A stretch of 13,512 nt of DNA from a virus (taxonomy: Duplodnaviria; Heunggongvirae; Uroviricota; Caudoviricetes), in the IMG/VR virus record IMGVR_UViG_2693429524_000013; one strand, given 5' to 3'. Of the stretch, positions 236-13,512 are shown one piece after another. Each line of letters begins with the position of its first letter. Positions within the stretch are counted from its first letter, which is position 1. The notes under the pieces were generated by a model, which saw only the letters and a list, made by a program, of their open reading frames with translations, made no database searches and had not been told where the DNA came from. The position numbers and the translations under genes are program-made.

Positions 236-694
236 TCAACCTCTCCCCACATTTGACCAGTATTTGATTGCACCGATCAAATCATCATAGTGGCGCATTG
301 CATCATTGAAGCCTTTATAGCTTGCCCATTGTGGTGAAACTTTGTTATTGCTGAATTGCCCACTAATCAGGATAGTCTCCAGAATGTCGGCGTATCGCTT
401 GCCAATTCGCTTCCTGACGGCCTCAGAGCTTCCACCCTTTACGATTGCATTAATCAGGGCTTTTGTGTGTCTCAGGCTCTCATAGAGCATTGCAGCGTGG
501 GCAGATTCCATAAATGAGCGTTTAGGCAAATCACCCCACCCCTCAGAATGAATTGCTGCCAGTGTGGCGTAATTCAGGCCGCTATAGTGTTTCCCGTCAT
601 CCCAGCCAACCGCTACACCTTCCATCTGTGAGAGCTCTTTATGCAGCTTATCCATCATGCGCTTGTCTATGGTGCACCGGACTTTCGGACTCAT
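236..694 (-). CDS. hypothetical phage protein (152 aa), distal gene of minus-strand head-module operon
   Basis: ORF 236..694. ATG at 694 with GGAG 8 nt upstream on minus strand. Start overlaps the stop of the upstream ORF (ATGA), suggesting translational coupling. No family recognised by eye. Confidence 0.55.
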   Translation of the reverse strand: MSPKVRCTIDKRMMDKLHKELSQMEGVAVGWDDGKHYSGLNYATLAAIHSEGWGDLPKRSFMESAHAAMLYESLRHTKALINAIVKGGSSEAVRKRIGKRYADILETILISGQFSNNKVSPQWASYKGFNDAMRHYDDLIGAIKYWSNVGRG

Positions 695-1494
695 TTGTTG
701 ATCTCCGTGATGTCATCAAGCAACATGTTGGCCTTATCAATCATCGTTTCGTGGAACTCATTCGACACAACAGACTTATCACCTGCGGCAATCTTTCCCG
801 CTGCCTCTCCCTGTGCATATTCCCCGCGATGCTTAGCCCTGGTTGATTTCGTAGCAGCATTGCCAGCGTTACTACCCTCTTTAGCACTATTAACAGCACC
901 CTTTTGCTGTGTTTTGTTCACCTTCTTACTGTTAGTGAAAACTCCGGCATTTTCGACCATCTTCACCTTGAAGGTGCGGAATTCTTCAAAGGTGCAATCA
1001 ATAGTGATGCAGTCACCGGAGGAAGAGCTACGCTTAACTTCACATTTCGTCATGATGAAGTTCTCAAGGAGTCCGGCATCTTCACTCACCAGGCTAACAA
1101 GCTGGCGCTTGTCTCTCATTTCCATAAGTGCCTGAACAGCGGCAGCAGGGCGCATAGATTCACGGGGATTATCTGGATCAGTGTTCCGGTCGATGTAGTT
1201 CTCTTTCCGGATGATATGAGGAGAAGAGGTAATAATGCCCGTAAAGCTGACAGATTTATCTTTAATGACGGCATGGTCTGACATGGTGGTGCCATCCTCG
1301 ACCGCATAGCTCGATTTCTCAACAGGGAACGAATAGCTGACATCAGAGATAGAGTCAAAGAAGATAGCCACGTTATCGGTATAGTTGAAGCCATCCATTA
1401 TATTTTTGTTTTGTGAATATCCCCCACACATAACAGTGAATGCAGGAGATCTCGACTCAGCTTGTTTTGCAGCTGTCAGAGCATCATTAGCCAT
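691..1494 (-). CDS. hypothetical phage protein (about 267 aa; start uncertain)
   Basis: Longest ORF is 691..1611, but the codon at 1611 is TTG with no SD. First ATGs are at 1503 and 1494, with GGAGG just upstream (spacing 1 and 10 nt). 1494 chosen as most plausible. Function not recognisable by eye. Confidence 0.5.
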   Translation of the reverse strand: MANDALTAAKQAESRSPAFTVMCGGYSQNKNIMDGFNYTDNVAIFFDSISDVSYSFPVEKSSYAVEDGTTMSDHAVIKDKSVSFTGIITSSPHIIRKENYIDRNTDPDNPRESMRPAAAVQALMEMRDKRQLVSLVSEDAGLLENFIMTKCEVKRSSSSGDCITIDCTFEEFRTFKVKMVENAGVFTNSKKVNKTQQKGAVNSAKEGSNAGNAATKSTRAKHRGEYAQGEAAGKIAAGDKSVVSNEFHETMIDKANMLLDDITEINK

Positions 1495-1699
1495 ATTAAA
1501 CATGCCTCCAAATTGGTCCACTTCTTTCGCTGGCTTAGCCAGGTGACTAAGGTCACCCCTTCGGGCGTGAGTGGATTTAGCTAAAGCTAAACCTGCAAAA
1601 GATGCAGGCAAAATAGAACTTATCGTTGCCCTGCTTAAAATCTGCAGAAAATACAGGGCAGTTATTCGTTAGAATCGCTTATAGCTCTTCCCGAGAGCG

Positions 1700-1951
1700 T
1701 TATTTTGCAAAACGATTATGGGCATTCAGGGCTTTTTTGCGGTCCTGTGCCTGTTTTCGTGCAATAAAATGTTCGAAAGTCTCGGCCCAGGTGCATTTAT
1801 TATATTCACGGTATTTATGCATAGCCTGGCGGCTAACGTCATAGCAGGCGGCAAATGTGGAGATACGCAGGAATTCCGGCAGATCCTCGTCATCGATATG
1901 GATAATATCAAAAGGCACGTCGTCACGGTCGCCGTATAAAACAATTTTCAT
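1700..1951 (-). CDS. small protein (83 aa) with helix-turn-helix-like segment
   Basis: Track ORF 1700..1960 begins at a GTG; first ATG is at 1951 with GAGGTG 5 nt upstream. Segment ISTFAACYDVSRQAMHKY looks like an HTH. Function unknown. Confidence 0.5.
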   Translation of the reverse strand: MKIVLYGDRDDVPFDIIHIDDEDLPEFLRISTFAACYDVSRQAMHKYREYNKCTWAETFEHFIARKQAQDRKKALNAHNRFAK

Positions 1952-1990
1952 AAAAGACACCTCAAAAACTTAAGACGGGGATAATAAAAA

Positions 1991-2036
1991 AAGGGAAGAG
2001 GGAAAGACCTATCCCCGATCTCTCACCTCTTCCCTT
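1991..2036 (-). terminator. terminator-like hairpin after the major capsid gene
   Basis: 11-bp perfect inverted repeat AAGGGAAGAGG (1991-2001) / CCTCTTCCCTT (2026-2036) with 24-nt loop. On the minus strand it is followed by a T-run (plus 1981-1990 is ataataaaaa). Long loop is atypical; may act as a partial terminator. Confidence 0.4.
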
Positions 2037-2065
2037 TGCTTTTATTTGGCCTTCGAAGAAGGACC

Positions 2066-3112
2066 TTATTTAGCCTTGGCTTTTGCCAGAGCAGCGGCGG
2101 CGGAGTTACTAACACTCACTTTAACCACAACTTCAGGCATCATGTTCATGAAAGCATAAGAGGATTCAATGAAGATTTCTCGTTTACCTCTGGACTCTTC
2201 CATATACATGAAAGCTTCACGTGCAGCGCCGTTTGCAAGCTTCAGGTTGCGAGCGCAAGGGCCGAAAAATTGAGTATAAACGCCCACCATATCGCCTAAC
2301 GCATGTGGCTGGAATTGTGGGACCAGATAAGCAGTATTCTCTGGCAGACTATCCATTTGCACCACACGCAGGGCTAAGCCCGGAATGCGGAAGGTCGGGA
2401 AGCCCGGCAGAATATCCTCAGGGAACATCAGGCCTTTGTCAGTGATATTTTGATTGCCGAACAACAGCACCTTACGGAGCAGTTCATCAGTCTGAATTGC
2501 AGCAAAGAGTTCAGCACGGCAGAACAGGGTGAAACCACGCAGAGCACGAACGACACCACGCTGTTTAACCTTGCTCAGTGCAACCAGGTCCTGCAGCTGT
2601 TTAAGGATATCTTTAGCTAAATCCACTTCTGAAGTGGTTTGCTGTGCGCCCAGCAGTTCGCACACATTCAGTTCTTTACCCTTGGTGAGGATAATTTTGT
2701 TCTCAAAGAGAGCAAGCTGGCGTGCTTCTTCGTGGGTCTGGCGTAAGCCTTCGCCAAGCTGAATAACACGACGAGCGGTTACAGACTCTAAATTCTCTTC
2801 GGAATCTTTGCCCGGAACGCGGATACCCTGCCAGTCAGAAGGATAAATAGCACTTGATGCGGCAGTGAATGCCATATCACCCGTGCCCGTTTCACGCTCA
2901 TCTGCGGTAATGGTCGCCATCTGTTCACCGTAGCGAGGATACTGACCGAAAGCAGATTGTTTCACCTGGCGAACTTTGTCATATTCAAATTTAAAGGTAT
3001 TGCACAGAGCAGTAGTGTTGAAGATATCCATTGCTGAAATAATCTGGTTATCCAGCGGGATGTCTTTAATCAGACCACACAGATCGCGAACTTCGAATTC
3101 TTTCTTAGCCAT
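2066..3112 (-). CDS. phage major capsid protein, lambda gpE-like
   Basis: Track ORF 2066..3118 begins at TTG; ATG at 3112 has AGGAGG 6 nt upstream. Size (~348 aa) fits gpE-type capsid proteins. Segment RRVIQLGEGLRQTHEEARQLALFENKIILTKGK resembles lambda gpE region RRRIIMQNMRDEELAIAQVEEMQAVSAVLKGK (alignment recalled from memory, not computed). Preceded by a ~110-aa gene, as D precedes E in lambda. Confidence 0.65.
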   Translation of the reverse strand: MAKKEFEVRDLCGLIKDIPLDNQIISAMDIFNTTALCNTFKFEYDKVRQVKQSAFGQYPRYGEQMATITADERETGTGDMAFTAASSAIYPSDWQGIRVPGKDSEENLESVTARRVIQLGEGLRQTHEEARQLALFENKIILTKGKELNVCELLGAQQTTSEVDLAKDILKQLQDLVALSKVKQRGVVRALRGFTLFCRAELFAAIQTDELLRKVLLFGNQNITDKGLMFPEDILPGFPTFRIPGLALRVVQMDSLPENTAYLVPQFQPHALGDMVGVYTQFFGPCARNLKLANGAAREAFMYMEESRGKREIFIESSYAFMNMMPEVVVKVSVSNSAAAALAKAKAK

Positions 3113-3123
3113 CTTCAACCTCC

Positions 3124-3459
3124 TTATTGTGCAACACGCAAATCGCCATTGCTGGCAGCGATAACAGCGGCTAAGCCGTCTTTATCCACGTAGGCCGGAT
3201 TGATGTAGCAACCTTTGTTCGCAACAACGATAAAAGCGTCACCAACCTCAGCACGTTCTACAACCAGCAGCGGAGTTTTATCTGTGTGCGTTGCTTTAAC
3301 GAAGGTCTCAACCTCGCCAGCCTCAGTAACCACAACAACAGTGCCAGCCGGAATCTCAGCTTTAACTTTGTTTTTAATCTCAACGTCGCGAATACTAAAT
3401 TGCTCATCTGCGGCGTATGAAATGATGTGTCCGCGTGTGCGGATAGTCATATCTCTCAT
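3124..3459 (-). CDS. putative head decoration / capsid accessory protein (111 aa)
   Basis: ORF 3124..3459 with ATG at 3459 and AGGTGA 4 nt upstream. Lies immediately upstream of the major capsid gene with a 11-nt gap. Size and position match decoration proteins; sequence does not resemble lambda gpD, so the call is positional. Confidence 0.4.
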   Translation of the reverse strand: MRDMTIRTRGHIISYAADEQFSIRDVEIKNKVKAEIPAGTVVVVTEAGEVETFVKATHTDKTPLLVVERAEVGDAFIVVANKGCYINPAYVDKDGLAAVIAASNGDLRVAQ

Positions 3460-3787
3460 TTGATCACCTGCGATTTAAATTAACTCCCCTCAAAGAGTTC
3501 CGGTATAACCTCTCAAACCGCGACAGGCTCGGGCCGAAAAGTTATGCCGGAAATCTAAAGGGAAATTGATACAAGGAAAGGGAGATAGCCCCGCACCGTC
3601 CAAGCGGGGGCTATTCCATATGGGGAAAACCAACAACAGTTGGCTGATAGTTCACAGTATGGTTACGGTTACTAGAGAGCACTATCACGAAAGGCACTCC
3701 CCCGAATCAGTTCAGGCTGCGGTCACATCAGCGGGGAAATACCTTTCGGGATAGCTACCCACACAGAAAACCCGCAAAAGAAAACTG

Positions 3788-3796
3788 TGTGGATAA
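3788..3796 (-). promoter_or_regulatory. perfect DnaA-box consensus TTATCCACA
   Basis: Plus strand reads TGTGGATAA, so the minus strand is TTATCCACA. Overlaps the 3' arm of an 8-bp inverted repeat CCACACAG (3759-3766) / CTGTGTGG (3785-3792). Single occurrence; within the leader of the head operon. Confidence 0.3.
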
Positions 3797-3943
3797 CTAG
3801 CCCAATAGGAGAATTAATCGACCACTCAACGATGATCAGGGTAGTGTTATTTATAAGGCGGCACCGCTACCTGGTCGCCGTTACTTTGGAGGAAAATACG
3901 GCAAATCAAGATCTTCTCACATTGATATTGACGCCATATGTAT

Positions 3944-3972
3944 ATTATATCAGTATTTACTCACATTGTCAA
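3944..3972 (-). promoter_or_regulatory. consensus sigma70 promoter reading leftward toward the head module
   Basis: On the minus strand: TTGACA (3972-3967), 17-bp spacer, TATAAT (3949-3944). Both hexamers are perfect consensus. Predicted TSS near 3937, giving a ~480-nt leader before the gene at 3459. Confidence 0.55.
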
Positions 3973-4195
3973 CACCCTGATTATATAAATTCTAATAATT
4001 AGCGTAGTAACGGTATTTTCAGACCTCTATCAATCCCATCAATACGTCACCCCACCCTTTAGACATATACATCTATCACTACTTTATAAAGCCTGATAGA
4101 TATCCGTTGATCCTGATCAAGGTTTTCCGGGGATTTACCCGGTTATAGTTCGAATCAAGGAAGGGGAGCATTGATAGCACCCAAACCGAACAAAC

Positions 4196-4213
4196 AAATC
4201 AACTTCTCGCAAA
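4196..4213 (+). promoter_or_regulatory. recurrent 18-nt leader motif AAATCAACTTCTCGCAAA, copy 1
   Basis: Exact 18-mer also at 4739-4756. In both cases it ends 11 nt before an ATG, with a purine-rich SD in between. Confidence 0.5.
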
Positions 4214-4224
4214 AGGTGATAGTT

Positions 4225-4347
4225 ATGGGTATCAAGAACAGTGCCAGCGCATGGCAAAAGGCCAGGTTTCATCACCCACACATTGTTAAGGCAATTGAGG
4301 TGGTTGGAGTGTTAGCCCTGATGTTAGCTCTGTGTGTGGAGGTGTGA
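4225..4347 (+). CDS. possible small hydrophobic peptide (40 aa)
   Basis: ATG at 4225 with AAGGTGA SD. Preceded 11 nt upstream by the recurrent motif AAATCAACTTCTCGCAAA. C-terminal half is hydrophobic (VVGVLALMLALCVEV). Below the 60-aa cutoff of the ORF track; uncertain. Confidence 0.3.
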   Translation: MGIKNSASAWQKARFHHPHIVKAIEVVGVLALMLALCVEV

Positions 4348-4449
4348 GATGGGCAAAGGAGGCAAAGCATTTTTTAATAGGTCTGGCTATCCTGGATGTT
4401 CTACTAATCATGATTGAGCGGAGTTTATGAACAGCATTGAGAGGAGTTT

Positions 4450-4710
4450 ATGACGGGGGCTAAAGATATCAGGAGACTGAGGGAAGAGCTGATAGCTGAA
4501 ATTAAAGCTAAGGCAAAGCAAATGGAGATAGCCGCACAAATGGATGTAGCGGAACAGATGTACAAGATGGTTGAAGAGGGAACACCACGACAGGTTATCG
4601 CTAAAACCTTCGGTGTGGGGATCGCCACCGTGCACAGAAGGCTGAAAGCCTATGCCGACTACCACAACATTGAGAGAGGGGAGGATGGGAGATTTAAGAA
4701 GAATAAATAG
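4450..4710 (+). CDS. small helix-turn-helix DNA-binding protein (86 aa)
   Basis: ORF 4450..4710 with GAGGAG SD. Segment TPRQVIAKTFGVGIATVHRRLK is a classic HTH pattern. N-terminal part reads as coiled-coil-like. Confidence 0.6.
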   Translation: MTGAKDIRRLREELIAEIKAKAKQMEIAAQMDVAEQMYKMVEEGTPRQVIAKTFGVGIATVHRRLKAYADYHNIERGEDGRFKKNK

Positions 4711-4738
4711 TGTGAACAGTCCAATAGGTTATTAACTT

Positions 4739-4756
4739 AAATCAACTTCTCGCAAA
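4739..4756 (+). promoter_or_regulatory. recurrent 18-nt leader motif, copy 2
   Basis: Identical to 4196-4213. Ends 11 nt before the ATG of the membrane-protein gene (4768). Confidence 0.5.
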
Positions 4757-4767
4757 GGGGTACCACT

Positions 4768-5289
4768 ATGTTATTCCAGAAAGACAAAGAATCAGTAAAT
4801 AAAAGGCTTTTTAAAGAACTGGTAAAAATGTTCTTTCAGTACACTGCAGCGTTTTTGATAGCCGGGCCTTGGTTAATGGCTATCTGTTTTTACCCTGCTA
4901 CCTTGTTTATTGGCAGTAGCAAGTTCGGCGATGGCCCGTTTCATGTGGATATTGGTTTTATAGATTCTCTCCTGATCCGTCCTATAAATGCTGTTCTCAA
5001 TGCTTTCTACTTCCCAACTAGTCTAGAGGGGTGGGCGGTAACCTGGGGTGTTTTAGGCTTAGCATATGTATATTGGTTGGTTGGCTTTTTGTGGGGTGCA
5101 ATCTGTGCTCTCCTCGATATTGATACAGGATCAAGCCGTAGGAGTAGTGGTAATAATAGCGGAGCGGGTGTATATGCACACGTAGGTACCAGAGGGGTAA
5201 GTATCACCGCAGGTACCCGATTCGCTGGCGGCTGGCTGAGTATAGGCAAACGCGGCGTTAGTTGGAGAAAAAGCAAAAAACTGTTCTGA
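4768..5289 (+). CDS. predicted membrane protein (173 aa)
   Basis: ORF 4768..5289. Recurrent motif ends 11 nt before the ATG, followed by AGGGG SD. At least two hydrophobic helices (FFQYTAAFLIAGPWLMAICFYPATLFIG and AVTWGVLGLAYVYWLVGFLWGAICALL) and a Gly/Ser/Arg-rich C-terminal tail. Followed by a strong intrinsic terminator. Confidence 0.6.
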   Translation: MLFQKDKESVNKRLFKELVKMFFQYTAAFLIAGPWLMAICFYPATLFIGSSKFGDGPFHVDIGFIDSLLIRPINAVLNAFYFPTSLEGWAVTWGVLGLAYVYWLVGFLWGAICALLDIDTGSSRRSSGNNSGAGVYAHVGTRGVSITAGTRFAGGWLSIGKRGVSWRKSKKLF

Positions 5290-5296
5290 CCTACCA

Positions 5297-5318
5297 GGGG
5301 GCCATCACGGCCCCTTTT
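5297..5318 (+). terminator. rho-independent terminator after the membrane-protein gene
   Basis: GC-rich 6-bp stem GGGGCC/GGCCCC with 5-nt loop, followed by TTTT (5315-5318). Lies 8 nt past the stop at 5289. Confidence 0.6.
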
Positions 5319-5404
5319 CTATTTCCAGTCGCTATAGCTCCTGAGTAATTCCACTCCCTGAGGTCGTGATCAATTCCACACCCTACCCCCTGATCAATTA
5401 ACCC

Positions 5405-5448
5405 CTATTTAATGGGTATTTAATGCCTATTTATTGATTTAATCCGTT
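5405..5448. repeat. AT-rich 11-bp tandem repeats (3-4 units)
   Basis: ctatttaatgg / gtatttaatgc / ctatttattga / tttaatccgtt in perfect tandem from 5405. Period is about one helical turn; candidate DNA-unwinding or bending element. Confidence 0.5.
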
Positions 5449-5514
5449 TTATGCCACAACCGCCCGGTTGACAGAGTAAGAGAGAGGGTGTAACCCTTTT
5501 TCGTAATACTAATG

Positions 5515-5530
5515 AAATCAATAAGTTAGC
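5515..5530 (+). repeat. 16-nt direct repeat AAATCAATAAGTTAGC, copy 1
   Basis: Exact 16-mer also at 13259-13274. Both copies are preceded 13-14 nt upstream by TAATA(C/T)T and lie shortly after a gene end. Confidence 0.5.
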
Positions 5531-6618
5531 TTAATAGGCCTTTTCTCTATTTTTGTCAAATTTAACATACCCTAAAAAACTGCAAAATCTGGCTGCAAGA
5601 TTATCTGCAGCTGGATTTCTTACACCTCATTTTGTGGTATCACCCTGACTAGTTTGTGCATAAATTGAACAGTTTTTAACATTTCCTCTTCACCTGGTAA
5701 CCACACAAAAAGCTAAAAACGAGGCACAGATAATCTTAGAGGCCTATTTTCTTGTTATCACTCTGGAAACGTCGTAGAAGTGATTTTGATGAAAGGCGAC
5801 CTACCCTATTACACCCCCATTTTTTGTTATCACAATTGCATCCTGTGTGGCTATATGGCTATGTGCTGAAAGCGGTCTCGGGTGTGGGTGTCAGAAATAT
5901 CCATTAGCGGTATTTGAGCTTATGGGTAACTCGTCTGAGGTGCCAGGCAGGCGCTCCCCTACCTCCCTTTTTTCTTCTAACAATTCTCAAATATCACACC
6001 ACTGCCCACCACGTTGCTATTATGTTAATTCTTAAGCTTTGCTGTATGTTGTGCACATTATTTATTCAGGTGGCTGTACGTAAATTCTGTGCCCACTGAT
6101 CATGATTTTTAAATCAGATTTTGTAGTGCGGTTTCTTAGTGCTGATAAGATCTATTATGTTAAATGCAATTTTCCCAACCCTTCAAATCAATGACTTACA
6201 TGTAAGCATGCACTAACACCACACACAGCACATTAGACGTATAGATGGCTATATCCCACATATTTGATTGTTTTGTAGTCATTCCCCTGATCATTTAACC
6301 AGTATAGTTTGTTATCTGCAGACCACAAAATCGGAATTTACATCTGATTAACATAATCTGTTAGCATGATCACCATTACCCACACAACAATAACCCCATG
6401 TAAGCCTCTTCAGGCAATTTATCGGCGTGTTGGTGTGAACAGTCTTTCATGTTCTTTATGTATCAGTTGTCCTGTGTGGTGATTTGGTGGACTGCCCCAG
6501 GGGCCATACTTATGATGCCCGGTCAACATAGCTGTTGATAAAATCAACGGGTGTTGACCTGCATATTTCCCACACATGAGAGGAAATCAGAGCAAAGAGA
6601 GAGGAGAGAGGTTTGTTA

Positions 6619-6668
6619 GTCACATATGGTGATTTGAGCTCATCTCAAACCTTCTACGAAGGCCTTTG
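6619..6668. repeat. tandem-hairpin element, copy A
   Basis: Hairpin 1: TTTGAG (6633-6638) / CTCAAA (6644-6649). CC linker. Hairpin 2: CCTTC (6650-6654) / GAAGG (6658-6662) with loop TAC. Flanked by TCACAT..GGTGATTTGAG and GGCCTTTG. Homologous to copy B. Confidence 0.5.
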
Positions 6669-6719
6669 CTAGTCAAAATCAAGTCACATTAGAGTCAAAT
6701 CAGATGCAATCAATCCCCC

Positions 6720-6778
6720 ACCTGTTGGGATTTCCCACATGTTCAACCATACACAGGAGCTAACCTGTTGGGATTTCC
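6720..6778. repeat. pair of 16-bp direct repeats ACCTGTTGGGATTTCC
   Basis: Identical 16-mers at 6720-6735 and 6763-6778 (43 bp apart). They share the ACCTGT core with the iterons immediately downstream. Confidence 0.6.
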
Positions 6779-6813
6779 TACAACCCCTTTCAGTCATACT
6801 CAGGCACCACACC

Positions 6814-7054
6814 CCGGTAAATATTTCCCTACTACCCCGGAGAATTTCTCCGCACTACCTGTAAAGAATTTTCACACCTGTGTGTTTATACAATCATACT
6901 CTCCTGTTTTGCAGTCATTGCACCCATGATACACAGCCCTAACCTGTAAAATATTTTTACTACCCCGCCAATAATACGGCCCATACCTGTAAAATATTTT
7001 TACTACTACCTGTCAAAATCTTTTACTACTACCTGTAAAAATATTTGACACTAA
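6814..7054. repeat. iteron array: six direct repeats of a ~21-23 bp unit
   Basis: Copies of CCTGTAAAATATTTTTACTAC-like units start at 6814, 6858, 6953, 6986, 7009 and 7032. The last three are exactly tandem at 23-bp spacing. Same orientation throughout; no ORF. Confidence 0.7.
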
Positions 7055-7101
7055 TAGATAAAGTAATAGACCACACAATAGATCCCCCTAACCCCCCAGG
7101 G

Positions 7102-7142
7102 GGGAATGGGGAGGGATCAGAGAGTGGGGAAGGTTTTCTAAG
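7102..7142. other. C6-A-G6 palindrome followed by G-tract-rich block
   Basis: CCCCCCAGGGGGG (7102-7114) followed by GGGGGGAATGGGGAGGGATCAGAGAGTGGGGAAGG. Four G-runs of 3 or more; possible G-quadruplex on the plus strand. Confidence 0.35.
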
Positions 7143-7245
7143 GGAAAAGCTTAACCCACAAATGAAAGCCTAAAGAGCATTAGCGACTCTTTAGGCAATC
7201 TGTGTGTGGGGTGACAATGTATTCCATACATGACACGTCACCCTG

Positions 7246-7316
7246 CTCACATGTGTGGTCCACTTCGTGGATTTGAGTTCACTCCGTAACTCAAACCCTC
7301 TACGAGGGCCTTGTGT
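7246..7316. repeat. tandem-hairpin element, copy B
   Basis: Hairpin 1: TTTGAGTT (7272-7279) / AACTCAAA (7288-7295). CC linker. Hairpin 2: CCCTC (7296-7300) / GAGGG (7304-7308) with loop TAC. Differs from copy A by a T-A to C-G double change that keeps the pair. Confidence 0.5.
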
Positions 7317-7410
7317 GGGGAGCGTAGTGCGATAGCACGTAGCTATATAATGTGGAGTCCGGATAAGAGACTTCTGTTTCCAATCCGGACCGTTTAAGCG
7401 AGTGGTTTCT

Positions 7411-7436
7411 CGCGCGCGTGCACGCACACATATATA
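7411..7436. other. 26-nt perfect alternating pyrimidine-purine tract (Z-DNA-prone)
   Basis: CGCGCGCGTGCACGCACACATATATA alternates pyrimidine/purine without a break for 26 nt. Read directly from the sequence. Confidence 0.5.
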
Positions 7437-7616
7437 AAGGATACACTCATAAATCGAAAATAAGGCCCCTAAATGGCCTTCTGGCTGCATTAACTAGTTT
7501 GAGTAGTGTAATTGCATTACCTGATGCTCAAATCGCGTTGTAGGGCCTCTTATGATGTTTGAGTTTAACACCCTCCAAAGTTTTAACAAAAAGTGCTCTC
7601 CCTCCATTGTGGGCCA

Positions 7617-7646
7617 TTGACAATCTTATTGCATAAATGCTATAAG
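7617..7646 (+). promoter_or_regulatory. possible second plus-strand promoter
   Basis: TTGACA (7617-7622), 18-bp spacer, TATAAG (7641-7646). Motif CCATTGACAAT recurs at 7745 within a perfect palindrome ATTGACAA-ttgg-TTGTCAAT (7746-7765). Confidence 0.3.
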
Positions 7647-7936
7647 TTATTCTGTTTTTGACACGGTAGGGGACATTAATAATGCTTACCCCTTTGCTGT
7701 GGACTTGTTTGTACCTATAGCTCGCCTAAATGATAATGATTCCCATTGACAATTGGTTGTCAATATGATAAGATTATAGATAGTGGGAGAAACAGATCCG
7801 GAGGTCAACGTGGAACTGAGCGACGCTATAGCGATCATCAACCTGGCTGTAATGTGGTGCGGTGTTGCCTACATAGCCGGAGTAACTGCAATCGACAACC
7901 TTGAAGAAAAAATGATAGATAAATACAAAAAGATTG

Positions 7937-7965
7937 TTGACAATCTCGCAAATAGCTGATAAAAT
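7937..7965 (+). promoter_or_regulatory. sigma70 promoter for the plus-strand operon
   Basis: TTGACA (7937-7942), 17-bp spacer, TAAAAT (7960-7965). The -35 sits in an imperfect palindrome GATTGTTGACAATC. About 120 nt upstream of the first gene (8088). Confidence 0.5.
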
Positions 7966-8016
7966 ATAAAGCATAGGGTAATTCTCATCATAGTGAATTT
8001 TCCTTTAATGAACTGG

Positions 8017-8044
8017 CGGGAGCTATTAGTTCCCGTTTCTTTTT
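8017..8044 (+). terminator. terminator-like hairpin in the leader of the plus-strand operon
   Basis: CGGGA (8017-8021), 9-nt loop, TCCCG (8031-8035), then TTTCTTTTT (8036-8044). Lies between the promoter at 7937-7965 and the first gene. Short stem, so modest confidence. Confidence 0.35.
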
Positions 8045-8087
8045 AACCCTATATCGCACAGGCGGTGAGCTAACAGGAGATTGAATC

Positions 8088-8297
8088 ATGGCTAAAACCG
8101 GACCGATAAGCCAGCTGGTAAACTGGACTACTGACGAAATCGTCGAGAACGTGCTTAAAGGTAACTTTCGCAAAACTTCCGTTTATGCATTTATTCGAAA
8201 ACATAAAGGAGAATATCCACACATTGAAGCGGCAATAGAAAGATTAAACTTTATTAAACTTGAGCGCCAGCTGGAAAGATATAAACATCTGATTTAA
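8088..8297 (+). CDS. small protein (69 aa), possible regulator
   Basis: ORF 8088..8297 with CAGGAGA SD 6 nt upstream. First gene after the promoter at 7937-7965. Basic and small; function not recognised. Confidence 0.55.
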   Translation: MAKTGPISQLVNWTTDEIVENVLKGNFRKTSVYAFIRKHKGEYPHIEAAIERLNFIKLERQLERYKHLI

Positions 8298-8317
8298 TAA
8301 ATAATTGTGAGGGAATT

Positions 8318-9202
8318 ATGGCAAACAATAAACTGGGGGCACATTTCACCCCCATTTTTAAACGTTTTATCAAGTATAATTTTGAAAATCCAATTGCAAA
8401 AACTACAACAGGCAAAGAGAGATTTAATTTAAATGCGACGGAATTGATAATTTACGGGGAAATGGTTGGCTTTCATTTAAACGGCAAAGAAATATTCATC
8501 TCGGAGCAGACCTTAGCAGATGATTGGGATTTTTCAAGACCAACGATTATTAAAGCTATTAAATCTCTAGTAAATGCTGGGATTATTTCTAAAGATAACC
8601 GGAAAGGCAAATCTAACATTTACAAACTGTTAATTACACCTGAGCAGTTTGATAAAATGTGCGATGAGCAGGGTATTAAAACCTTAGACAGTGTGGGAGA
8701 CAGCAAAGAGGCACCTGCTACACAGGCCCAAGATAATCAACAGGAAGCCCCAAAACAAGCCACACAGCAGCCTGAAAAGCCCGAGGCAATGCAATCCCCT
8801 TCCCAACCTAAAAAAGAACACAGAGAACGCCGTAGAGACGCTGGCAAACGTGAAATAGATGAGCACGGTTATCCGATTCTGACAAGCGATGAAATGAATG
8901 CCAGATATAAAGTAATTCAGGCCGCATTTAAAGATCAGAAGAGAATTAAATTATCTGAATTGCGTGATACATTTTACGGGCCGGAGGTGATGGATAAAAT
9001 TAAAGGCACTATTCCTGATAAAATCTGGAAAGAGGAAGATTACTGGCACCTGACAGAGCAGGCCCTTAAGGTAGCTCAACACGTGGTTAAAAGAGGCAAA
9101 TCAATTATTATTGATTCTATTAGTCATGGCTATGATGCACCGAAAGAAAGGTTGTGGAACAACTGCAAGCTTGTAAAAGGCGAATTGACAATTACAAAAT
9201 AA
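8318..9202 (+). CDS. winged-helix DNA-binding protein (294 aa), possibly replication-initiator/organiser-like
   Basis: ORF 8318..9202 with GAGGGA SD. N-terminal pattern (ELIIYGEMVGF...ISEQTLADDWDFSRPTIIKAIKSLVNAGIIS) resembles wHTH domains of phage O-type/DnaD-like replication proteins. Q/P/K-rich low-complexity linker, then a C-terminal domain. Family assignment is inference. Confidence 0.55.
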   Translation: MANNKLGAHFTPIFKRFIKYNFENPIAKTTTGKERFNLNATELIIYGEMVGFHLNGKEIFISEQTLADDWDFSRPTIIKAIKSLVNAGIISKDNRKGKSNIYKLLITPEQFDKMCDEQGIKTLDSVGDSKEAPATQAQDNQQEAPKQATQQPEKPEAMQSPSQPKKEHRERRRDAGKREIDEHGYPILTSDEMNARYKVIQAAFKDQKRIKLSELRDTFYGPEVMDKIKGTIPDKIWKEEDYWHLTEQALKVAQHVVKRGKSIIIDSISHGYDAPKERLWNNCKLVKGELTITK

Positions 9203-9240
9203 ACATTCTTATTTTTAAGTTCATCAAAGGAAAATTTAAA

Positions 9241-9387
9241 ATGTATGGCGATTTTGATTATTACCTGGAAAAGGAAAAATATTTTGAAGATGAACTATCA
9301 CAACATTTTTCATATTGGGAAGAATATTGTGGTTGGTTAGCTGAAGATCCAGCAGATGAAGAAAATGATTCTGACATCCCTTATTAA
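9241..9387 (+). CDS. small acidic protein (48 aa)
   Basis: Track ORF 9154..9387 overlaps the end of the 294-aa gene. Internal ATG at 9241 has AAGG about 10 nt upstream and lies after the upstream stop; shorter form preferred. Confidence 0.4.
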   Translation: MYGDFDYYLEKEKYFEDELSQHFSYWEEYCGWLAEDPADEENDSDIPY

Positions 9388-9478
9388 TACCCCCAAATAA
9401 ACCAACAAACTACTAAATAAACTAATTACTAGAACTAGATTGATTGCCCTGATCTTTTAAACGTTCGGAGAATTAATC

Positions 9479-9964
9479 ATGTTCAAATCTGATCTTTCTG
9501 ATTCCCAATTTGAAAAACTGGTAGCACTGCAGAAATACCTCCCCAGTGATGATCAACCAACACGACAGGCCAAACACTTATTAGTCGAGGGCTTTACCCC
9601 TGAATTCGTTGCGGAATATACAGGCGTTAAACTTGAGAAAGTCCAAAAACTATATAATGAGTCCTGGAATCCACGGTGTCGAGTTCCCCTCAGTGTCTAT
9701 AACGACATAGATAGAGATAAAAATGTCTTCGAAGATCGCCGCCGCAAATCTCTTTTAATGTGGAATTGTGGGATGAATATTGAAGAGATAGCAAAAGAAT
9801 TAAAAGTAACCTGCTTTCATATATGGGGCTTGTTGAGCGACCTCCTGCCACGTAAGGAGCTTAATCAACGTTTGCCTAAGCCCGGTAGTCGTGCTTATCG
9901 CGAATTTATATTCATCTACCGCCGCCATAGCAATAAAGTCCGGAAAGCAATGCAGCGCAAATAG
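9479..9964 (+). CDS. putative DNA-binding regulator (161 aa)
   Basis: ORF 9479..9964 with GGAG SD. Two HTH-like segments (PEFVAEYTGVKLEKVQKLYNE and MNIEEIAKELKVTCFHIWGLL). Basic C-terminus. Confidence 0.55.
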   Translation: MFKSDLSDSQFEKLVALQKYLPSDDQPTRQAKHLLVEGFTPEFVAEYTGVKLEKVQKLYNESWNPRCRVPLSVYNDIDRDKNVFEDRRRKSLLMWNCGMNIEEIAKELKVTCFHIWGLLSDLLPRKELNQRLPKPGSRAYREFIFIYRRHSNKVRKAMQRK

Positions 9965-10052
9965 CTTATAGCCTTCACATATACCGCAAGTTATTGATTC
10001 TGCCGTCCGGTAAATATGCCGGATGGCTCATATAAATTTTAAGGAATTCCAA

Positions 10053-10496
10053 ATGTCTCAAATCGCTAAATTATTATCCCAGGTTATCAAAGCTATCGAC
10101 GCTGAAGATTCAAAAGTTCGCCAGGATCTTTTAGATGGCAAGTTTACCAACACCCTGGCATTTACCCGTGACAAAGAGCACTTCTTAAAACACAGGCATC
10201 ACGCTTTTGCTGAATGCAAGTCCGCCAATGGTGATGTTTTTTATGTCGATTTGGTGGTTATGGCATGCAGATTGTGGATGATTCAAGACCTTATGCGCCA
10301 GCACGGAGATGATCCCCTCCTCAGCATGTGGGATAACGCCAAGGATGGATTCGTGATCGCGGCGCTATCCAAATCAATGATTGAGGCAGAAGGTGCCAGC
10401 CTTCAAAACATGGCAGACCTCTTCGAAATAAGCGTAGGAATGATGCAGGCCATGCTGCAGGCGGTGAAGCCTCTCAAACTGGTCAATCTTGAATGA
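10053..10496 (+). CDS. hypothetical protein (147 aa)
   Basis: Track ORF starts at 10023 without SD; second ATG at 10053 has AAGGAA 6 nt upstream. Followed by an intrinsic terminator-like hairpin. Confidence 0.5.
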   Translation: MSQIAKLLSQVIKAIDAEDSKVRQDLLDGKFTNTLAFTRDKEHFLKHRHHAFAECKSANGDVFYVDLVVMACRLWMIQDLMRQHGDDPLLSMWDNAKDGFVIAALSKSMIEAEGASLQNMADLFEISVGMMQAMLQAVKPLKLVNLE

Positions 10497-10503
10497 TTAA
10501 TAA

Positions 10504-10545
10504 GCACCCTCAAAAAATGGGGGTGCCTTTATTTATCTTACTTTT
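10504..10545 (+). terminator. terminator-like hairpin between regulatory genes and chaperone/tape-measure genes
   Basis: GCACCC (10504-10509) / GGGTGC (10521-10526) stem with 11-nt loop, followed by T-rich CTTTATTTATCTTACTTTT. Confidence 0.4.
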
Positions 10546-10570
10546 CACGTTTATCTAAAAGGATATGCCT

Positions 10571-10954
10571 ATGAATATTGAAGAAATGATAGTTGAATTC
10601 GATGAGGGTGATTTCCTGGAAGATGGGGAGTTTAAATACTCCCGTTTTAAACAGGCGTTATTTAGCAGTGAGGATAAACCACACGTTAGTGATCTTAACG
10701 ATGATGATTTATGTCGCTGGGTATGCACCCGCTTATATGAAGATGGAAAATATACAGGCCAAAACTTTCCAAATCTCTATTTCAAAGCACAAACATTTGA
10801 GGAAGGGCAAAGAGTGAAAAACCTGGTCGATAAAATGCTGTCAGCCGGATATTTGCATAAAGAATTATTAAATCCTAAAGCTGAAAGCAAGCGCCATTAT
10901 ATTTTTGTGTGGACTATTGGCGATAAGTGTCCACTAAGACGCAAAGGCAAATGA
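10571..10954 (+). CDS. acidic protein (127 aa), possible tail assembly chaperone
   Basis: Track start 10565 sits 1 nt after the SD; ATG at 10571 has better spacing. Acidic N-terminus and position two genes upstream of the tape measure gene suggest a gpG-like chaperone. Positional inference only. Confidence 0.45.
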   Translation: MNIEEMIVEFDEGDFLEDGEFKYSRFKQALFSSEDKPHVSDLNDDDLCRWVCTRLYEDGKYTGQNFPNLYFKAQTFEEGQRVKNLVDKMLSAGYLHKELLNPKAESKRHYIFVWTIGDKCPLRRKGK

Positions 10955-10955
10955 T

Positions 10956-11141
10956 ATGAATACCTACGAAAAGATTTATCAAAAATTAAAAAGTGATAAC
11001 AATGCTCCCGTCATCAAGGGCGGGGCTTCTTCCTCTGGTGACCTCTCAATCGAAGAGCTTGCGGAGAAATATAATATTGATAAAGAGGCCCTGAAAAGAG
11101 CTATTTCATTATCAAAATCTTTAAGACAGGGCGAGGTGTAA
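10956..11141 (+). CDS. small protein (61 aa) immediately upstream of tape measure gene
   Basis: ORF 10956..11141; ATG 1 nt after the upstream stop (coupled). Same reading frame as the tape measure ORF, separated by TAA plus one codon. Confidence 0.45.
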   Translation: MNTYEKIYQKLKSDNNAPVIKGGASSSGDLSIEELAEKYNIDKEALKRAISLSKSLRQGEV

Positions 11142-11144
11142 GAG

Positions 11145-13247
11145 ATGGCAATGAAGGAAGTCGCCAGACTAACAAACGTTATTTACTGGGATTCTGATAA
11201 ATCCTCCTGGCGAAAAGAAGTTAAACGGCTTGAGGATTATAAAAAATCCTGGAAGAAAGCCACCGACGATATAGCTAAAGCTGATTTTAAATCTAATCAG
11301 GCTGTGCTCAGAACACAAAGAACACGCGCTAAGGTGGAAGAGCAGATTGCCAGAGCACAGAAGAAACAACGTGCTCAGGCTGTCAGCCGTCTGACCGGGG
11401 GCAATAATCCGGAGCTCTCCTCTATGCGCAAGTTCTATCAGCAGCAAGCCAGAGAAGCCGCCAGACAACAAAAACTGTTAGATCGTAGTGTTGGAGATGT
11501 TCAGCACAGAAAAGCACGTGTAGGGGCCAACAGTGCACGAATCAGCAGCATGTTTGATGGATCCCTGGTTGCTCAGTTCCAATCCAGAATCCAGAGAGTT
11601 AATGCTGATTATGCTAAAGGGGCTATTAACCTGCAGACCTATAATCAGAAAATGGCTCGGCTCAGAGCTGAAATGAAGATGGCAACAGTAGAGGCCGGAA
11701 AATTTCAGAGCAGACTGGATAAACTGGCATCAGGTGCCAGCAAGGTGCATGACAACCTGGGCAAAATCAACTCCACACTAGGCAAGATAGCCATTGGCCT
11801 TACTGCCGCTGGCTGGGGTGTTCAGCGTGCTGTTAGTGGTGCTATGGGTAGCCTTGCAGATCGCAACAGTGCCTACTTCGGTTTGATGGCACAGAACAAG
11901 GATGATAAAGCCAAGACTGACCAGCAGATGGCCTACGTCAAAAGAATCTCTTATGACTATGGGATGGATCAGCGTGAGACCGAAGGCGGCTTTATGCGCT
12001 TTGCTGCAGCCACACCAAGCATAAAAGAGAAAGATAAGCAGGATCTCTTTGAGGCTATGGCGATTAAAGGCCGATCAGTGGGTGCTACTGCGGACCAACA
12101 GAACAGGGCTATCGTTGCACTAGGACAGATATATAGCAAGGGCGGTCGAGTGTATGCGGAAGAGCTTAAGGGCCAGCTGTCAGAAGCCCTGGCAGGTTCT
12201 CAGGTAGATTTCACTAAGGCCGCTATCGATGCCGGAATCATCAAGAAAGAGGAAGAATTTAATAAAGCCCTTGAAGATGGCAAGATCACCATGGACAAGC
12301 TTCTTCCTTCCCTAGTGAAAATCTGGGGTGCTGCAAAAGAAACTAAAGCTTTTGCTGAATCCATGAAACAGCCAGAAGTAGCAATGCAGCGCATGAAAAA
12401 CAGCTTTAACGAGCTGGCGATTCAGTTTATGGGTGTTGTGGATCCTGCCGATGGCGTTGTTAGCTTATCTGAATCTCTGATCTCCATCTTCGAAGACCTC
12501 ACCACTGATATGGACGGCAGCGGGAGCGCGGCAAAACAGTTTGGTGAAGCAGTCGGTGCTGCCATGCGGGAGATCATGTATTGGGTAGGCTTCGCTAAGG
12601 GCTATATCGAGGTCAAGGCTAAAGAGTTCGGCATGACCGGATCAGAGGTTGGCGAGCTTATCGGGAAACTAGTAGTCGGCTTAGCAGGTCTGAAAGTTAT
12701 TACCACACTGCTTTCCCCTCTAACCGGATTTGTTTCACTTGTCACTCAGCTGATAGCCTTGTTAGGCAAAATCCCTGGTATGAGCAAGCTTATGGCATCT
12801 GCCTCAGGTGGAACGGCAACAGGAGCAGCGGTCATCAGTGCAGGATCTAACGCTGAAAGAAGTTTCATTGATGGCAAGACGCAGGAAATGAGTAAGGAGA
12901 ACTCAAAACAGGGCGCTTTGTTTGAGCTGGGGAGATTTGTCAGCAATGCTGGCGCACTGTTCACACCTGGCGGTGATACTGGTCCTTTGTTCGATCAGGT
13001 CAAAGGCTGGTTTAATAAAGGGCCAACATTGACAGTAGACACTGGCATCAGACCAACACCAACAGGCGGCATAGCTATCCAGAATGGTGGATATCAACCA
13101 GTCCAAGTAAATGTAGCCCCACAAGGTGAGATTTCCGGCAAATGGGAGATAACCATCGATGAGGGGGGAATTGCCAGGGTGATCCAGAAGGAAGTCAGCG
13201 ATCAGTTGGATTGGAAAGCCACACAGGAATCTAACCAGCTTTTCTAA
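11145..13247 (+). CDS. phage tail tape measure protein (700 aa)
   Basis: ORF 11145..13247 with GAGGTG SD 6 nt upstream. N-terminal ~200 aa charged and coiled-coil-like. Central segment (ATADQQNRAIVALGQIYSKGGRVYAEELKGQLSEALAG) matches the tape-measure domain signature as I recall it. C-terminal part has hydrophobic Gly/Ala-rich segments typical of these proteins. Confidence 0.75.
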   Translation: MAMKEVARLTNVIYWDSDKSSWRKEVKRLEDYKKSWKKATDDIAKADFKSNQAVLRTQRTRAKVEEQIARAQKKQRAQAVSRLTGGNNPELSSMRKFYQQQAREAARQQKLLDRSVGDVQHRKARVGANSARISSMFDGSLVAQFQSRIQRVNADYAKGAINLQTYNQKMARLRAEMKMATVEAGKFQSRLDKLASGASKVHDNLGKINSTLGKIAIGLTAAGWGVQRAVSGAMGSLADRNSAYFGLMAQNKDDKAKTDQQMAYVKRISYDYGMDQRETEGGFMRFAAATPSIKEKDKQDLFEAMAIKGRSVGATADQQNRAIVALGQIYSKGGRVYAEELKGQLSEALAGSQVDFTKAAIDAGIIKKEEEFNKALEDGKITMDKLLPSLVKIWGAAKETKAFAESMKQPEVAMQRMKNSFNELAIQFMGVVDPADGVVSLSESLISIFEDLTTDMDGSGSAAKQFGEAVGAAMREIMYWVGFAKGYIEVKAKEFGMTGSEVGELIGKLVVGLAGLKVITTLLSPLTGFVSLVTQLIALLGKIPGMSKLMASASGGTATGAAVISAGSNAERSFIDGKTQEMSKENSKQGALFELGRFVSNAGALFTPGGDTGPLFDQVKGWFNKGPTLTVDTGIRPTPTGGIAIQNGGYQPVQVNVAPQGEISGKWEITIDEGGIARVIQKEVSDQLDWKATQESNQLF

Positions 13248-13296: not shown

Positions 13297-13328
13297 AGAA
13301 AAAAGCCCCTAAGTGTTAACAAAGGGGC
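13297..13328 (-). terminator. terminator-like hairpin, minus-strand orientation
   Basis: GCCCCT (13305-13310) / AGGGGC (13323-13328) with 12-nt loop. Preceded on plus strand by a run of six A (13299-13304), so on the minus strand the hairpin is followed by six T. Would terminate a leftward transcript from beyond the window end; could also weakly terminate the tape-measure operon. Confidence 0.35.
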
Positions 13329-13361
13329 TCTTCTCCGGTATCCTTTTGATGCGGGGCAAAA

Positions 13362-13405: not shown

Positions 13406-13512
13406 TTGCCGGAAGGTAAGTCAACTCCGGTCTATAAACCTTAAAGCGACTATAAAATTGCCCCGCCAATTGTGATGATCCGACCTTTGAGGCGGGTCCG
13501 GTGCCCAGGGGG

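Follow-up and report, generated by a model that had tools for sequence, protein, structure and literature searches.

The 13,512-nt stretch of DNA analysed here (IMG/VR record IMGVR_UViG_2693429524_000013, hereafter the window) is a whole iteron-type Escherichia coli plasmid of ~13.5 kb that carries a partial set of tailed-phage structural genes. On balance, we favour the interpretation that this plasmid is a satellite of rV5-like phages, one that would supply its own capsid shell and tail-length set and take the remainder of the virion from a helper. The interpretation rests wholly on comparative genomics, from which we predict helper dependence, packaging, induction, co-assembly, small capsids and transfer. 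An earlier note on the same DNA had put forward three readings: a satellite or phage parasite, a phage-plasmid with scattered morphogenetic genes, and a rearranged prophage remnant. The first of these fits far better than the other two, or than a chance assortment of genes, because four observations combine: the replicon is small and autonomous, it carries a constrained partial kit from one phage group, it occurs in plasmid and integrative forms, and it is distributed worldwide without conjugative functions. More tentatively, and with somewhat less than even confidence, we propose that no earlier plasmid-borne satellite is known for tailed coliphages with an obligately virulent life cycle (the rV5-like Vequintavirinae), and that this is the first satellite family to replace both the capsid shell and the tail-length machinery, which would give chimeras with a mini-head and a re-measured tail; it would have integrated cousins in other bacteria and a dedicated ~200-nt structured RNA or DNA element possibly used for packaging or control.

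The last 600 and first 600 nucleotides of the window align unbroken inside two related circular plasmids. Because its end and start are contiguous there, the window is a closed circle, and it therefore has no flanks in which absent morphogenetic genes could lie. The earlier note had allowed that such genes might be found in normal order in flanking sequence, which does not apply to a circle. Matches to the window comprise five PLSDB plasmids and seven plasmids among 5,426 complete E. coli genomes, with 89% to 94% identity across 79% to 94% of the window length. All of these records are circular plasmids of 13.2-13.7 kb that are typed as non-mobilizable, none is chromosomal, and no conjugation or mobilisation genes were found in the window. 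The carrier isolates come from human, chicken, cattle and feral pig sources in Chile, Japan, South Africa, the USA and China. A search of JGI metagenomes for plasmid relatives recovered near-identical copies only, and the sequence cluster to which the major capsid protein (MCP) belongs has 441 members, nearly all from 13-14-kb contigs. The plasmid appears to provide for its own replication and maintenance, with a predicted Rep-like initiator and iterons, and with circular copies in seven complete genomes.

Four structural proteins were recognised: the MCP, a tail-tube initiator, a neck-like protein and a tape measure protein (TMP). Their best phage homologs all belong to the Vequintavirinae and close relatives, at 24% to 51% identity. 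The nearest phages are rV5-like Vequintavirus (E. coli), phiTE-like Certrevirus and similar obligately virulent myoviruses of ~130-150 kb, with ~136 kb for rV5/phiTE-like Vequintavirinae. The profile searches that the earlier note had called for upheld its capsid and tape-measure calls. Its lambda framing stood only in part: relatives of the MCP match the gpE-family Pfam model, Phage_cap_E (PF03864), for which the window MCP alone falls below threshold, but the nearest phages are rV5- and phiTE-type myoviruses and not lambdoid siphoviruses.

The MCP gene (2066-3118, minus strand) is predicted to encode a 350-aa HK97-fold protein of the gpE/Phage_cap_E type. The protein matches phrog_29 (E = 8.6e-21) and aligns end to end with the rV5-like MCP (24% identity, E = 2e-12). 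A profile of the MCP family matched solved MCPs end to end, with E-values from 7e-35 to 2e-17, including phi92 gp124 (7e-35) and 9cul (4e-30). We consider the predicted capsid assignment solid. Within the plasmid family the MCP is 94% to 99% identical (dN/dS 0.075), and tblastn against 50,697 phage records gave no match at 1e-5. When 1.84 billion representatives were searched exhaustively with HMMER, only 29 proteins scored E <= 1e-3; the next relatives are 42%, 31% and 30% identical, and the nearest proteins outside the plasmid clades are ~25% identical. The isolation of the MCP lineage fits long independent evolution rather than recent capture.

The MCP gene lies in a leftward operon of five genes, which encode in order a 111-aa protein, the MCP, a protein of ~85 aa, the Dit-like tube initiator and a 152-aa phrog_222 protein. 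The last two are tail or neck genes within the capsid operon that the earlier note had overlooked. The tube initiator gene (691-1611, minus strand) has a longest open reading frame (ORF) of 306 aa, and the PGAP start at 1494 gives 267 aa. Its predicted assignment is likewise solid, with matches to PF21821 Dit_like (E = 3.3e-25), phrog_5197 (E = 1.5e-107), the 'Tube initiator protein' of PDB chain 9cuy_K (E = 1.6e-34) and the rV5-like 'tail tube initiator' (51% identity, E = 2e-67); its dN/dS is 0.04. The final gene of the operon (236-694, minus strand), whose start overlaps the stop of the gene upstream, encodes the 152-aa neck/tail-completion-like protein. This protein matches phrog_222, 'tail completion or Neck1' (E = 7.9e-29), and is 43% identical to rV5-like bas57_0011 (E = 2e-41) and 49% identical to homologs in phiTE-group phages. 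It is 99% to 100% identical at the amino acid level within the plasmid family, with a dN/dS of 0.004.

The TMP gene (11145-13247, plus strand) encodes 700 aa, compared with 778 aa for the rV5-like TMP and 811 aa for the solved 9cuy_W. Matches to PF20155 (1.5e-14), phrog_5255 (6e-154) and PDB 9cuy_W (5e-21) make the predicted tape-measure assignment solid and agree with what the earlier note had called. Similarity to the rV5-like TMP is limited to aa 4-495 (26% identity, E = 2e-20). The N-terminal 70% is clearly Vequintavirinae-like, and the C-terminal 215 residues (486-700; window 12600-13244) had no tblastn match in the 50,697 phage records. In phiTE, the C-terminal end of the TMP sits at the baseplate hub. 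The arrangement of the phiTE TMP is six-fold over the length of the tail but three-fold where the protein ends, at the C-terminus (PMC11972413). Within the plasmid family the TMP is 68% to 92% identical (dN/dS 0.19).

The rest of a virion is missing from the circle. We scanned 16 ORFs against Pfam and PHROGs, comprising every family-conserved ORF of at least 100 aa and the small PGAP-annotated ORFs. With the whole 13.5-kb circle covered, these ORFs gave no match to portal, terminase, protease, scaffold, tube, sheath, baseplate or lysis families, and no integrase was found among them. The set of virion and packaging genes is thus incomplete, and the observation that had drawn attention to this DNA, of capsid genes without portal, terminase, protease or scaffold and a TMP without tube or distal tail genes, holds for the closed circle and is more striking than the earlier note had it. 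Scaffold mimicry by the ORF at 10956-11141 was considered and rejected, as its faint 'NNxPV' resemblance is not kept in the plasmid family.

The structural genes are under strong purifying selection. Their dN/dS values, computed like the others here against eight members of the plasmid family, span 0.004-0.19, and their reading frames are intact in seven or all eight of these relatives. Divergence within the plasmid family, whose members are otherwise 92% to 99% identical, is greatest in the Rep gene and the iterons. Their divergence around a fixed structural core suggests swapping of the replicon or of incompatibility. Since the replicon is swapped and the structural genes are held, this suggests that the structural kit, and not the replicon, defines the element.

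More distant relatives keep the same organisation. Another lineage of E. coli plasmids, 14.7 kb in size (L028 and L029), reproduces the whole map, with identities to the window of 51% for the MCP, 58% for the initiator, 50% for the neck-like protein, 35% for the TMP and 25% for Rep. In the metagenomic sequence L013 the order is a small protein, the MCP, a small protein, the Dit-like initiator and the 152-aa neck-like protein. The metagenomic sequence L014 has the same order as far as the initiator, and a TMP-like gene that is convergent on the opposite strand. A 130-kb chromosomal contig (L016) carries an integrase, a Rep-like gene, a homolog of the window ORF at 9479, a 709-aa TMP-like gene, a small protein and an MCP, and metabolic genes come directly after them. 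The set has the look of a ~10-kb island that has integrated and keeps the shared core in reduced form. Directly upstream of its TMP-like gene (6143-6487 of L016) is a gene for a 114-aa protein (PF26210 Phage_phiTE_211), in which a stretch of 36 residues matches the N-terminus of the rV5-like head scaffold at 61% identity. This protein may be a scaffold mimic, such as a capsid-assembly hijacker might carry; no counterpart of it was found in the window.

Two small proteins flank the MCP. The one directly upstream (111 aa; 3124-3459, minus strand) had been called decoration-like. Only its position and size agree with that call, the order of small protein then MCP being that of decoration protein and MCP in rV5-like phages. 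BLASTP showed no similarity to the rV5 decoration protein, and neither Pfam nor the profile search of the PDB gave a match. An AlphaFold2 model was unusable (pLDDT 38). The gene is present in all relatives (dN/dS 0.057). The protein directly downstream of the MCP (83-86 aa; 1700-1960, minus strand) has no family match in the profile scans and is recognised by its conserved position, which is the same in L013, L014, L015, L016 and L029; similarity is weak (34% to 37%) and dN/dS is 0.065.

As the earlier note had described, the capsid genes follow a promoter and a long leader. The predicted sigma-70 promoter of the structural operon (3972-3944, minus strand) matches the consensus at 12/12 positions with TG, and together with operator-like repeats and the leader it makes up the region 3460-3972 on the minus strand. 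The leader measures ~485 nt between the promoter and the 111-aa gene, and its segment 3701-3900 is 99% to 100% conserved across the plasmid family. Two 20-nt direct repeats of family D10, ATCAAGATCTTCTCACATTG and ATCAGTATTTACTCACATTG, are located at 3949-3968 and 3905-3924, 44 nt apart. They overlap and follow the promoter and are candidate operators. The structural intergenic regions of rV5 have extended -10 promoters of the TGGTAAAAT type. We considered a helper-type promoter motif in the window, where four TGATAAAAT sites occur and 0.8 are expected, and set it aside as ordinary sigma-70 usage that is not diagnostic.

The replication/regulation genes and the TMP gene are read rightward from a second predicted promoter (7937-7965, plus strand; 11/12 consensus match with TG). 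This operon encodes a 69-aa protein, the Rep-like initiator, a 49-aa ORF, a protein with two helix-turn-helix (HTH) modules, the products of three small genes and, last, the TMP, and a hairpin is found 3' of the TMP gene at ~13306-13335. This agrees with the earlier description of a TMP gene that closes an operon of replication and regulatory genes and is followed by a terminator. The Rep-like initiator (294 aa; 8318-9202, plus strand) is predicted to be a winged-helix DnaD/O-like protein from its match to phrog_270 (E = 1.3e-10), to ten more Rep/O-like PHROGs and to PF13730 and DnaD_N in Pfam. It is the most divergent protein of the plasmid family (31% to 82% amino acid identity). The candidate replication origin is an iteron array (6720-7049, plus strand) ~1.3 kb upstream of the Rep-like gene, with five copies of the 20-nt repeat TACCTGTAAAATATTTTTAC (6856-7049; spacing 23, 43 and 85 nt) and a further pair at 6720 and 6763. 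Iterons and Rep co-vary among family members. A Rep gene next to direct repeats that are predicted iterons is the arrangement of an iteron-controlled theta plasmid. On either side of the iterons we also observed a motif, GATTTGAG...CTCAAACC[TC]TCTACGA[AG]GGCCTT, at 6630-6668, 7270-7311 and 7542-7565; the third of these holds a partial copy in inverted orientation.

The circle junction is spanned by a structured non-coding element of ~200 nt, predicted with RNAalifold on the plus strand (5' part 13470-13512, 3' part 1-154), in the convergent intergenic region between the TMP gene and the neck-like gene. It is the most conserved DNA of the plasmid, with 97% to 100% identity in the eight relatives, and the best DNA match to L029 (79% over 226 nt, E = 7e-44), whose proteins are only 35% to 58% identical. 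The predicted structure is multi-branched with 73 pairs, 13 of which have compensatory double changes, seven of them in a long-range closing helix. One hairpin occurs in three variants (CCAG/CTGG, CAAG/CTTG and CCTA/TAGG). None of 500 shuffles reached 13 compensatory pairs, and slid partners gave 0-2. The covariation support is good but narrow, as it comes from essentially two lineages and one independent change. The G-U pairs lie on the plus strand, and matches to a covariance model of the element were confined to the two E. coli plasmid lineages. The element might act as an RNA transcribed beyond the TMP operon, as a signal for single-strand DNA initiation or as a signal for packaging. It is also, in its own right, a candidate new motif of RNA or DNA.

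Several results weigh against a satellite. No packaging function or signal was identified in the window and no TerS-like protein, and no scaffold or size-determination factor was recognised there. No DNA similarity to phages was found: megablast of the whole window gave no match to them, and neither did blastn of the intergenic element, which has no Rfam match either. The ORF-poor region 5290-8087 gave only three matches of ~50 nt to phages by blastn, at chance level (E = 6e-3). As none of these searches gave a meaningful match, the window has no pac or cos sequence resembling that of a helper. Identities to known rV5-like phages are modest (24% to 51%), so the actual helper may be a phage that is not yet sampled. 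IMG/VR viral contigs contained no satellite-type relative of the plasmid family, and hence no sign of encapsidated DNA; the two contigs of 12.7 kb and 6 kb that matched are plain rV5 fragments. The neck-like protein matched no PDB chain, and its phiTE homolog is absent from the solved virion. Its role in the virion is uncertain for this reason, and it may serve in assembly instead of being built into the particle. Finally, a strict size limit set by a small capsid sits badly with a 30-kb antibiotic-resistance variant of the plasmid.

That variant (L011, NTNY01000053.1, 30.1 kb) has an insertion between the neck-like gene and the end of the TMP gene. The insertion, at 13452-21041 of the locus, carries strA/strB-type aminoglycoside phosphotransferases, an IS transposase and tetR-type genes. 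Another record, deposited as a plasmid of 39,610 bp (L005, NZ_CP043822.1), consists of three tandem 13.2-kb units with fragmented ORFs in one copy. Either long-read assembly produced this arrangement as an artefact or the multimer is genuine, and the latter would bear on headful packaging.

Among the alternatives to a satellite, the one that survives best, which we nevertheless consider unlikely, is an anti-phage defence plasmid whose diverged structural homologs act as dominant-negative 'poison' subunits against rV5-like assembly, with no packaging. The homologs do belong to one virulent phage group, and the missing packaging function or signal and the absence of the plasmid family from IMG/VR would be expected of such a plasmid. 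Assembly interference is a known strategy (Tai systems, PMC11364771), and the dN/dS of 0.004 of the neck-like protein is as expected of a protein bound to keep fitting a helper partner. However, five co-ordinated, full-length, constrained structural genes, including a complete MCP and its partners, exceed the needs of interference. A non-mobilizable plasmid in human, chicken, cattle and feral pig isolates from five continents needs a route of transfer, the integrated relative combines an integrase with replication genes in the way that satellites typically do, and no PADLOC model was matched. Interference and satellite spread are not mutually exclusive and can coexist.

A split or multipartite temperate phage or phage-plasmid, with the absent genes on a co-resident prophage or larger phage-plasmid that is co-induced, is in our view quite improbable. 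It would account for the strong sigma-70 promoters with operator-like repeats, which fit repressor control as in temperate systems; the helper is a putative one, and the nearest known phages are just 24% to 51% identical. Against this, every phage homolog that could be detected comes from an obligately virulent group, searches of 185,579 species-representative genomes with neck-like and initiator patterns returned no relative, and complete phages hold no intermediate relatives of the MCP lineage. A self-sufficient phage-plasmid with scattered genes, as the earlier note had proposed, is contradicted by a whole replicon of 13.5 kb that lacks terminase, portal, tube, sheath, baseplate and lysis genes. 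A degenerate remnant, that is a cryptic replicon left by deletion from a phage-plasmid or prophage with functionless structural leftovers, would explain the small size, the incomplete kit and the several ORFs without known function, but is very improbable given dN/dS values of 0.004-0.19 and intact ORFs across eight relatives, identical architecture and gene order in lineages at 35% to 58% protein identity and in metagenomic relatives, replicon genes that diverge while structural genes are conserved, and no similar parent phage among 50,697 phage records or 72,556 plasmids.

If the plasmid is a satellite, its two strong sigma-70 promoters with operator-like repeats would in the resting state probably be held off by plasmid HTH proteins. 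On helper infection the plasmid would express its own capsid shell protein with the two small flanking partners, and a tail-length set made up of the TMP, the tube initiator and the neck/tail-completion-like protein, with the initiator seating the TMP on the baseplate hub. The helper would supply the portal, protease, scaffold, terminase, tube, sheath, baseplate, fibres and lysis functions. The resulting particles would be chimeric, with a capsid sized for the plasmid, which would thereby spread at the expense of the helper. The capsid of phiTE has T=13 and contains an MCP, a DEC protein and a 'Pagoda' protein (PMC11972413). Scaling its volume (T=13, 142 kb) to 13.5 kb would give T ~3-4. The plasmid TMP is 78 residues shorter than the rV5-like TMP, which predicts a modestly shorter tail, by roughly 10%. 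Re-measuring the tail may divert helper baseplates into satellite tails, or may match the ejection machinery to a small genome. Mitomycin induction, proposed in the earlier note, is probably unsuitable because the likely helper is virulent.

The other ORFs of the window are less informative. Nine non-structural ORFs, concatenated, had no tblastn match to phages. An 86-aa HTH protein (4450-4710, plus strand; PF02796 HTH_7, E = 3.5e-6; dN/dS 0.10) is a candidate regulator. It is followed by a variable hotspot (4768-5400), which in the window holds a gene for a 173-aa hydrophobic protein (4768-5289, plus strand) without a Pfam, PHROG or PADLOC match. Only four of the eight relatives carry this allele. 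In L003, L007 and L029 it is replaced by proteins of 195, 236 or 162 aa, which have no Pfam or PADLOC match; PADLOC was run on ten window proteins and four alternative-allele proteins from these loci and returned sub-threshold noise only. The layout recalls the accessory or defence hotspots of P4-like satellites.

The 161-aa protein with two HTH-like modules (9479-9964, plus strand) is predicted to be all-helical (AlphaFold2 pLDDT 79, nine helices), and a 30% identical homolog is located beside the Rep-like gene in L016. Foldseek ranked sigma factors and ParB/KorA HTH proteins highest, but no match reached significance. We considered a TerS identity for this protein, which neither the two modules nor these matches support. 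The three small genes directly upstream of the TMP gene (10023-11141, plus strand; 157, 129 and 61 aa) have dN/dS values of 0.05-0.21 and no phage homologs, and the last has weak HTH signals. A tail-chaperone identity was rejected for them, as they have no similarity to rV5 bas57_0016, the gene just upstream of the rV5 TMP, which we take by position only to be a possible tail-assembly chaperone. Two ORFs of ~49 aa (7810-7959 and 9238-9387, plus strand) are PGAP-annotated in all relatives. In six relatives the second shows 100% conservation, and hardly any synonymous changes either. The 99-aa ORF at 7191-7490 on the minus strand was rejected as a gene because its reading frame is not conserved in relatives. 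No tRNA was found in the window, and no Rfam family scored above threshold.

Full-text searches of the literature found no description of this plasmid family. If it is a satellite family, this would explain the spread of one class of non-mobilizable E. coli plasmids, at least one variant of which carries streptomycin and tetracycline resistance genes. Phages of the rV5 type are widely used in phage therapy and in biocontrol cocktails, and the plasmid would add a natural antagonist of them. It would also be a tractable E. coli model for the redirection of capsid size by a divergent MCP, and a model for tail-ruler substitution, which to our knowledge no known satellite carries out.

We compared the plasmid with known systems, among which SaPIbov5 Ccm, the cf-PICIs and PLE offer a precedent for each step of the proposed satellite reading. 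The cf-PICIs of Enterobacteria make their own capsids (bioRxiv 10.1101/2022.09.08.507074). They resemble the plasmid in small size (~10-15 kb), in having their own HK97-fold MCP and in the reliance on a helper for the remaining virion that we predict for it. They differ in being integrated (integrase, att), whereas the window has no integrase and all its copies are on plasmids. They also carry a whole head module (portal, protease/scaffold, connectors, TerS and HNH) and no tail genes, and use temperate siphovirus helpers. The plasmid, in contrast, has no portal, protease or TerS, has a TMP and tube initiator, and its homologs point to virulent myoviruses. The closest mechanistic precedent for an MCP without the remaining head module is Ccm of SaPIbov5, a satellite MCP homolog that redirects capsid size (PMC8569155) and alters size or shape. 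Ccm is close to the capsid protein of its helper and belongs to an integrated Gram-positive island with a cos site, whereas the plasmid MCP is only ~24% identical to that of the putative helper and is accompanied by two small partners and tail genes.

According to a 2025 review (PMC12282955), the only plasmid shown to be a satellite was an inovirus plasmid satellite (Schmid et al. 2024). It is an autonomous plasmid like ours, but has a filamentous ssDNA phage as helper and no tailed-phage capsid or tail homologs. Phanie, from A. baumannii, was set aside as phi29-like and unrelated on the basis of its mention in a review of phi29-like phages. Phage-plasmids have a full set of packaging, head, tail and lysis genes in addition to plasmid replication and partition, whereas the window has only five structural-type genes in 13.5 kb. 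P4, the satellite of P2, is similar in size (~11.6 kb), can exist as a multicopy plasmid, parasitises a myovirus and directs small (T=4) capsids. It has no MCP, TMP or tail genes and uses Sid/Psu, an alpha primase-helicase, an integrase and a P2-type cos; no window ORF matched Sid/Psu/Delta, the alpha primase-helicase or the integrase in Pfam or PHROGs, and no dedicated search was made for a P2-type cos.

Those satellites of virulent phages that are known come mainly from Vibrio (PLE and PICMI). The PLE of Vibrio cholerae parasitises the virulent myovirus ICP1 (PMC10945586), has its own replication initiator, remodels particles into small capsids and blocks its helper, all of which the plasmid would share if it is a satellite. 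PLE is integrated, has a large serine recombinase and a RepA_N initiator, and uses the ICP1 coat protein with the TcaP scaffold, whereas the plasmid has no recombinase, its own MCP, a winged-helix DnaD/O-like Rep and no sequence relationship to PLE. If confirmed, the plasmid would be a novel variety of satellite, one that is plasmid-borne, has a probable virulent myovirus helper, and brings its own capsid shell and tail ruler.

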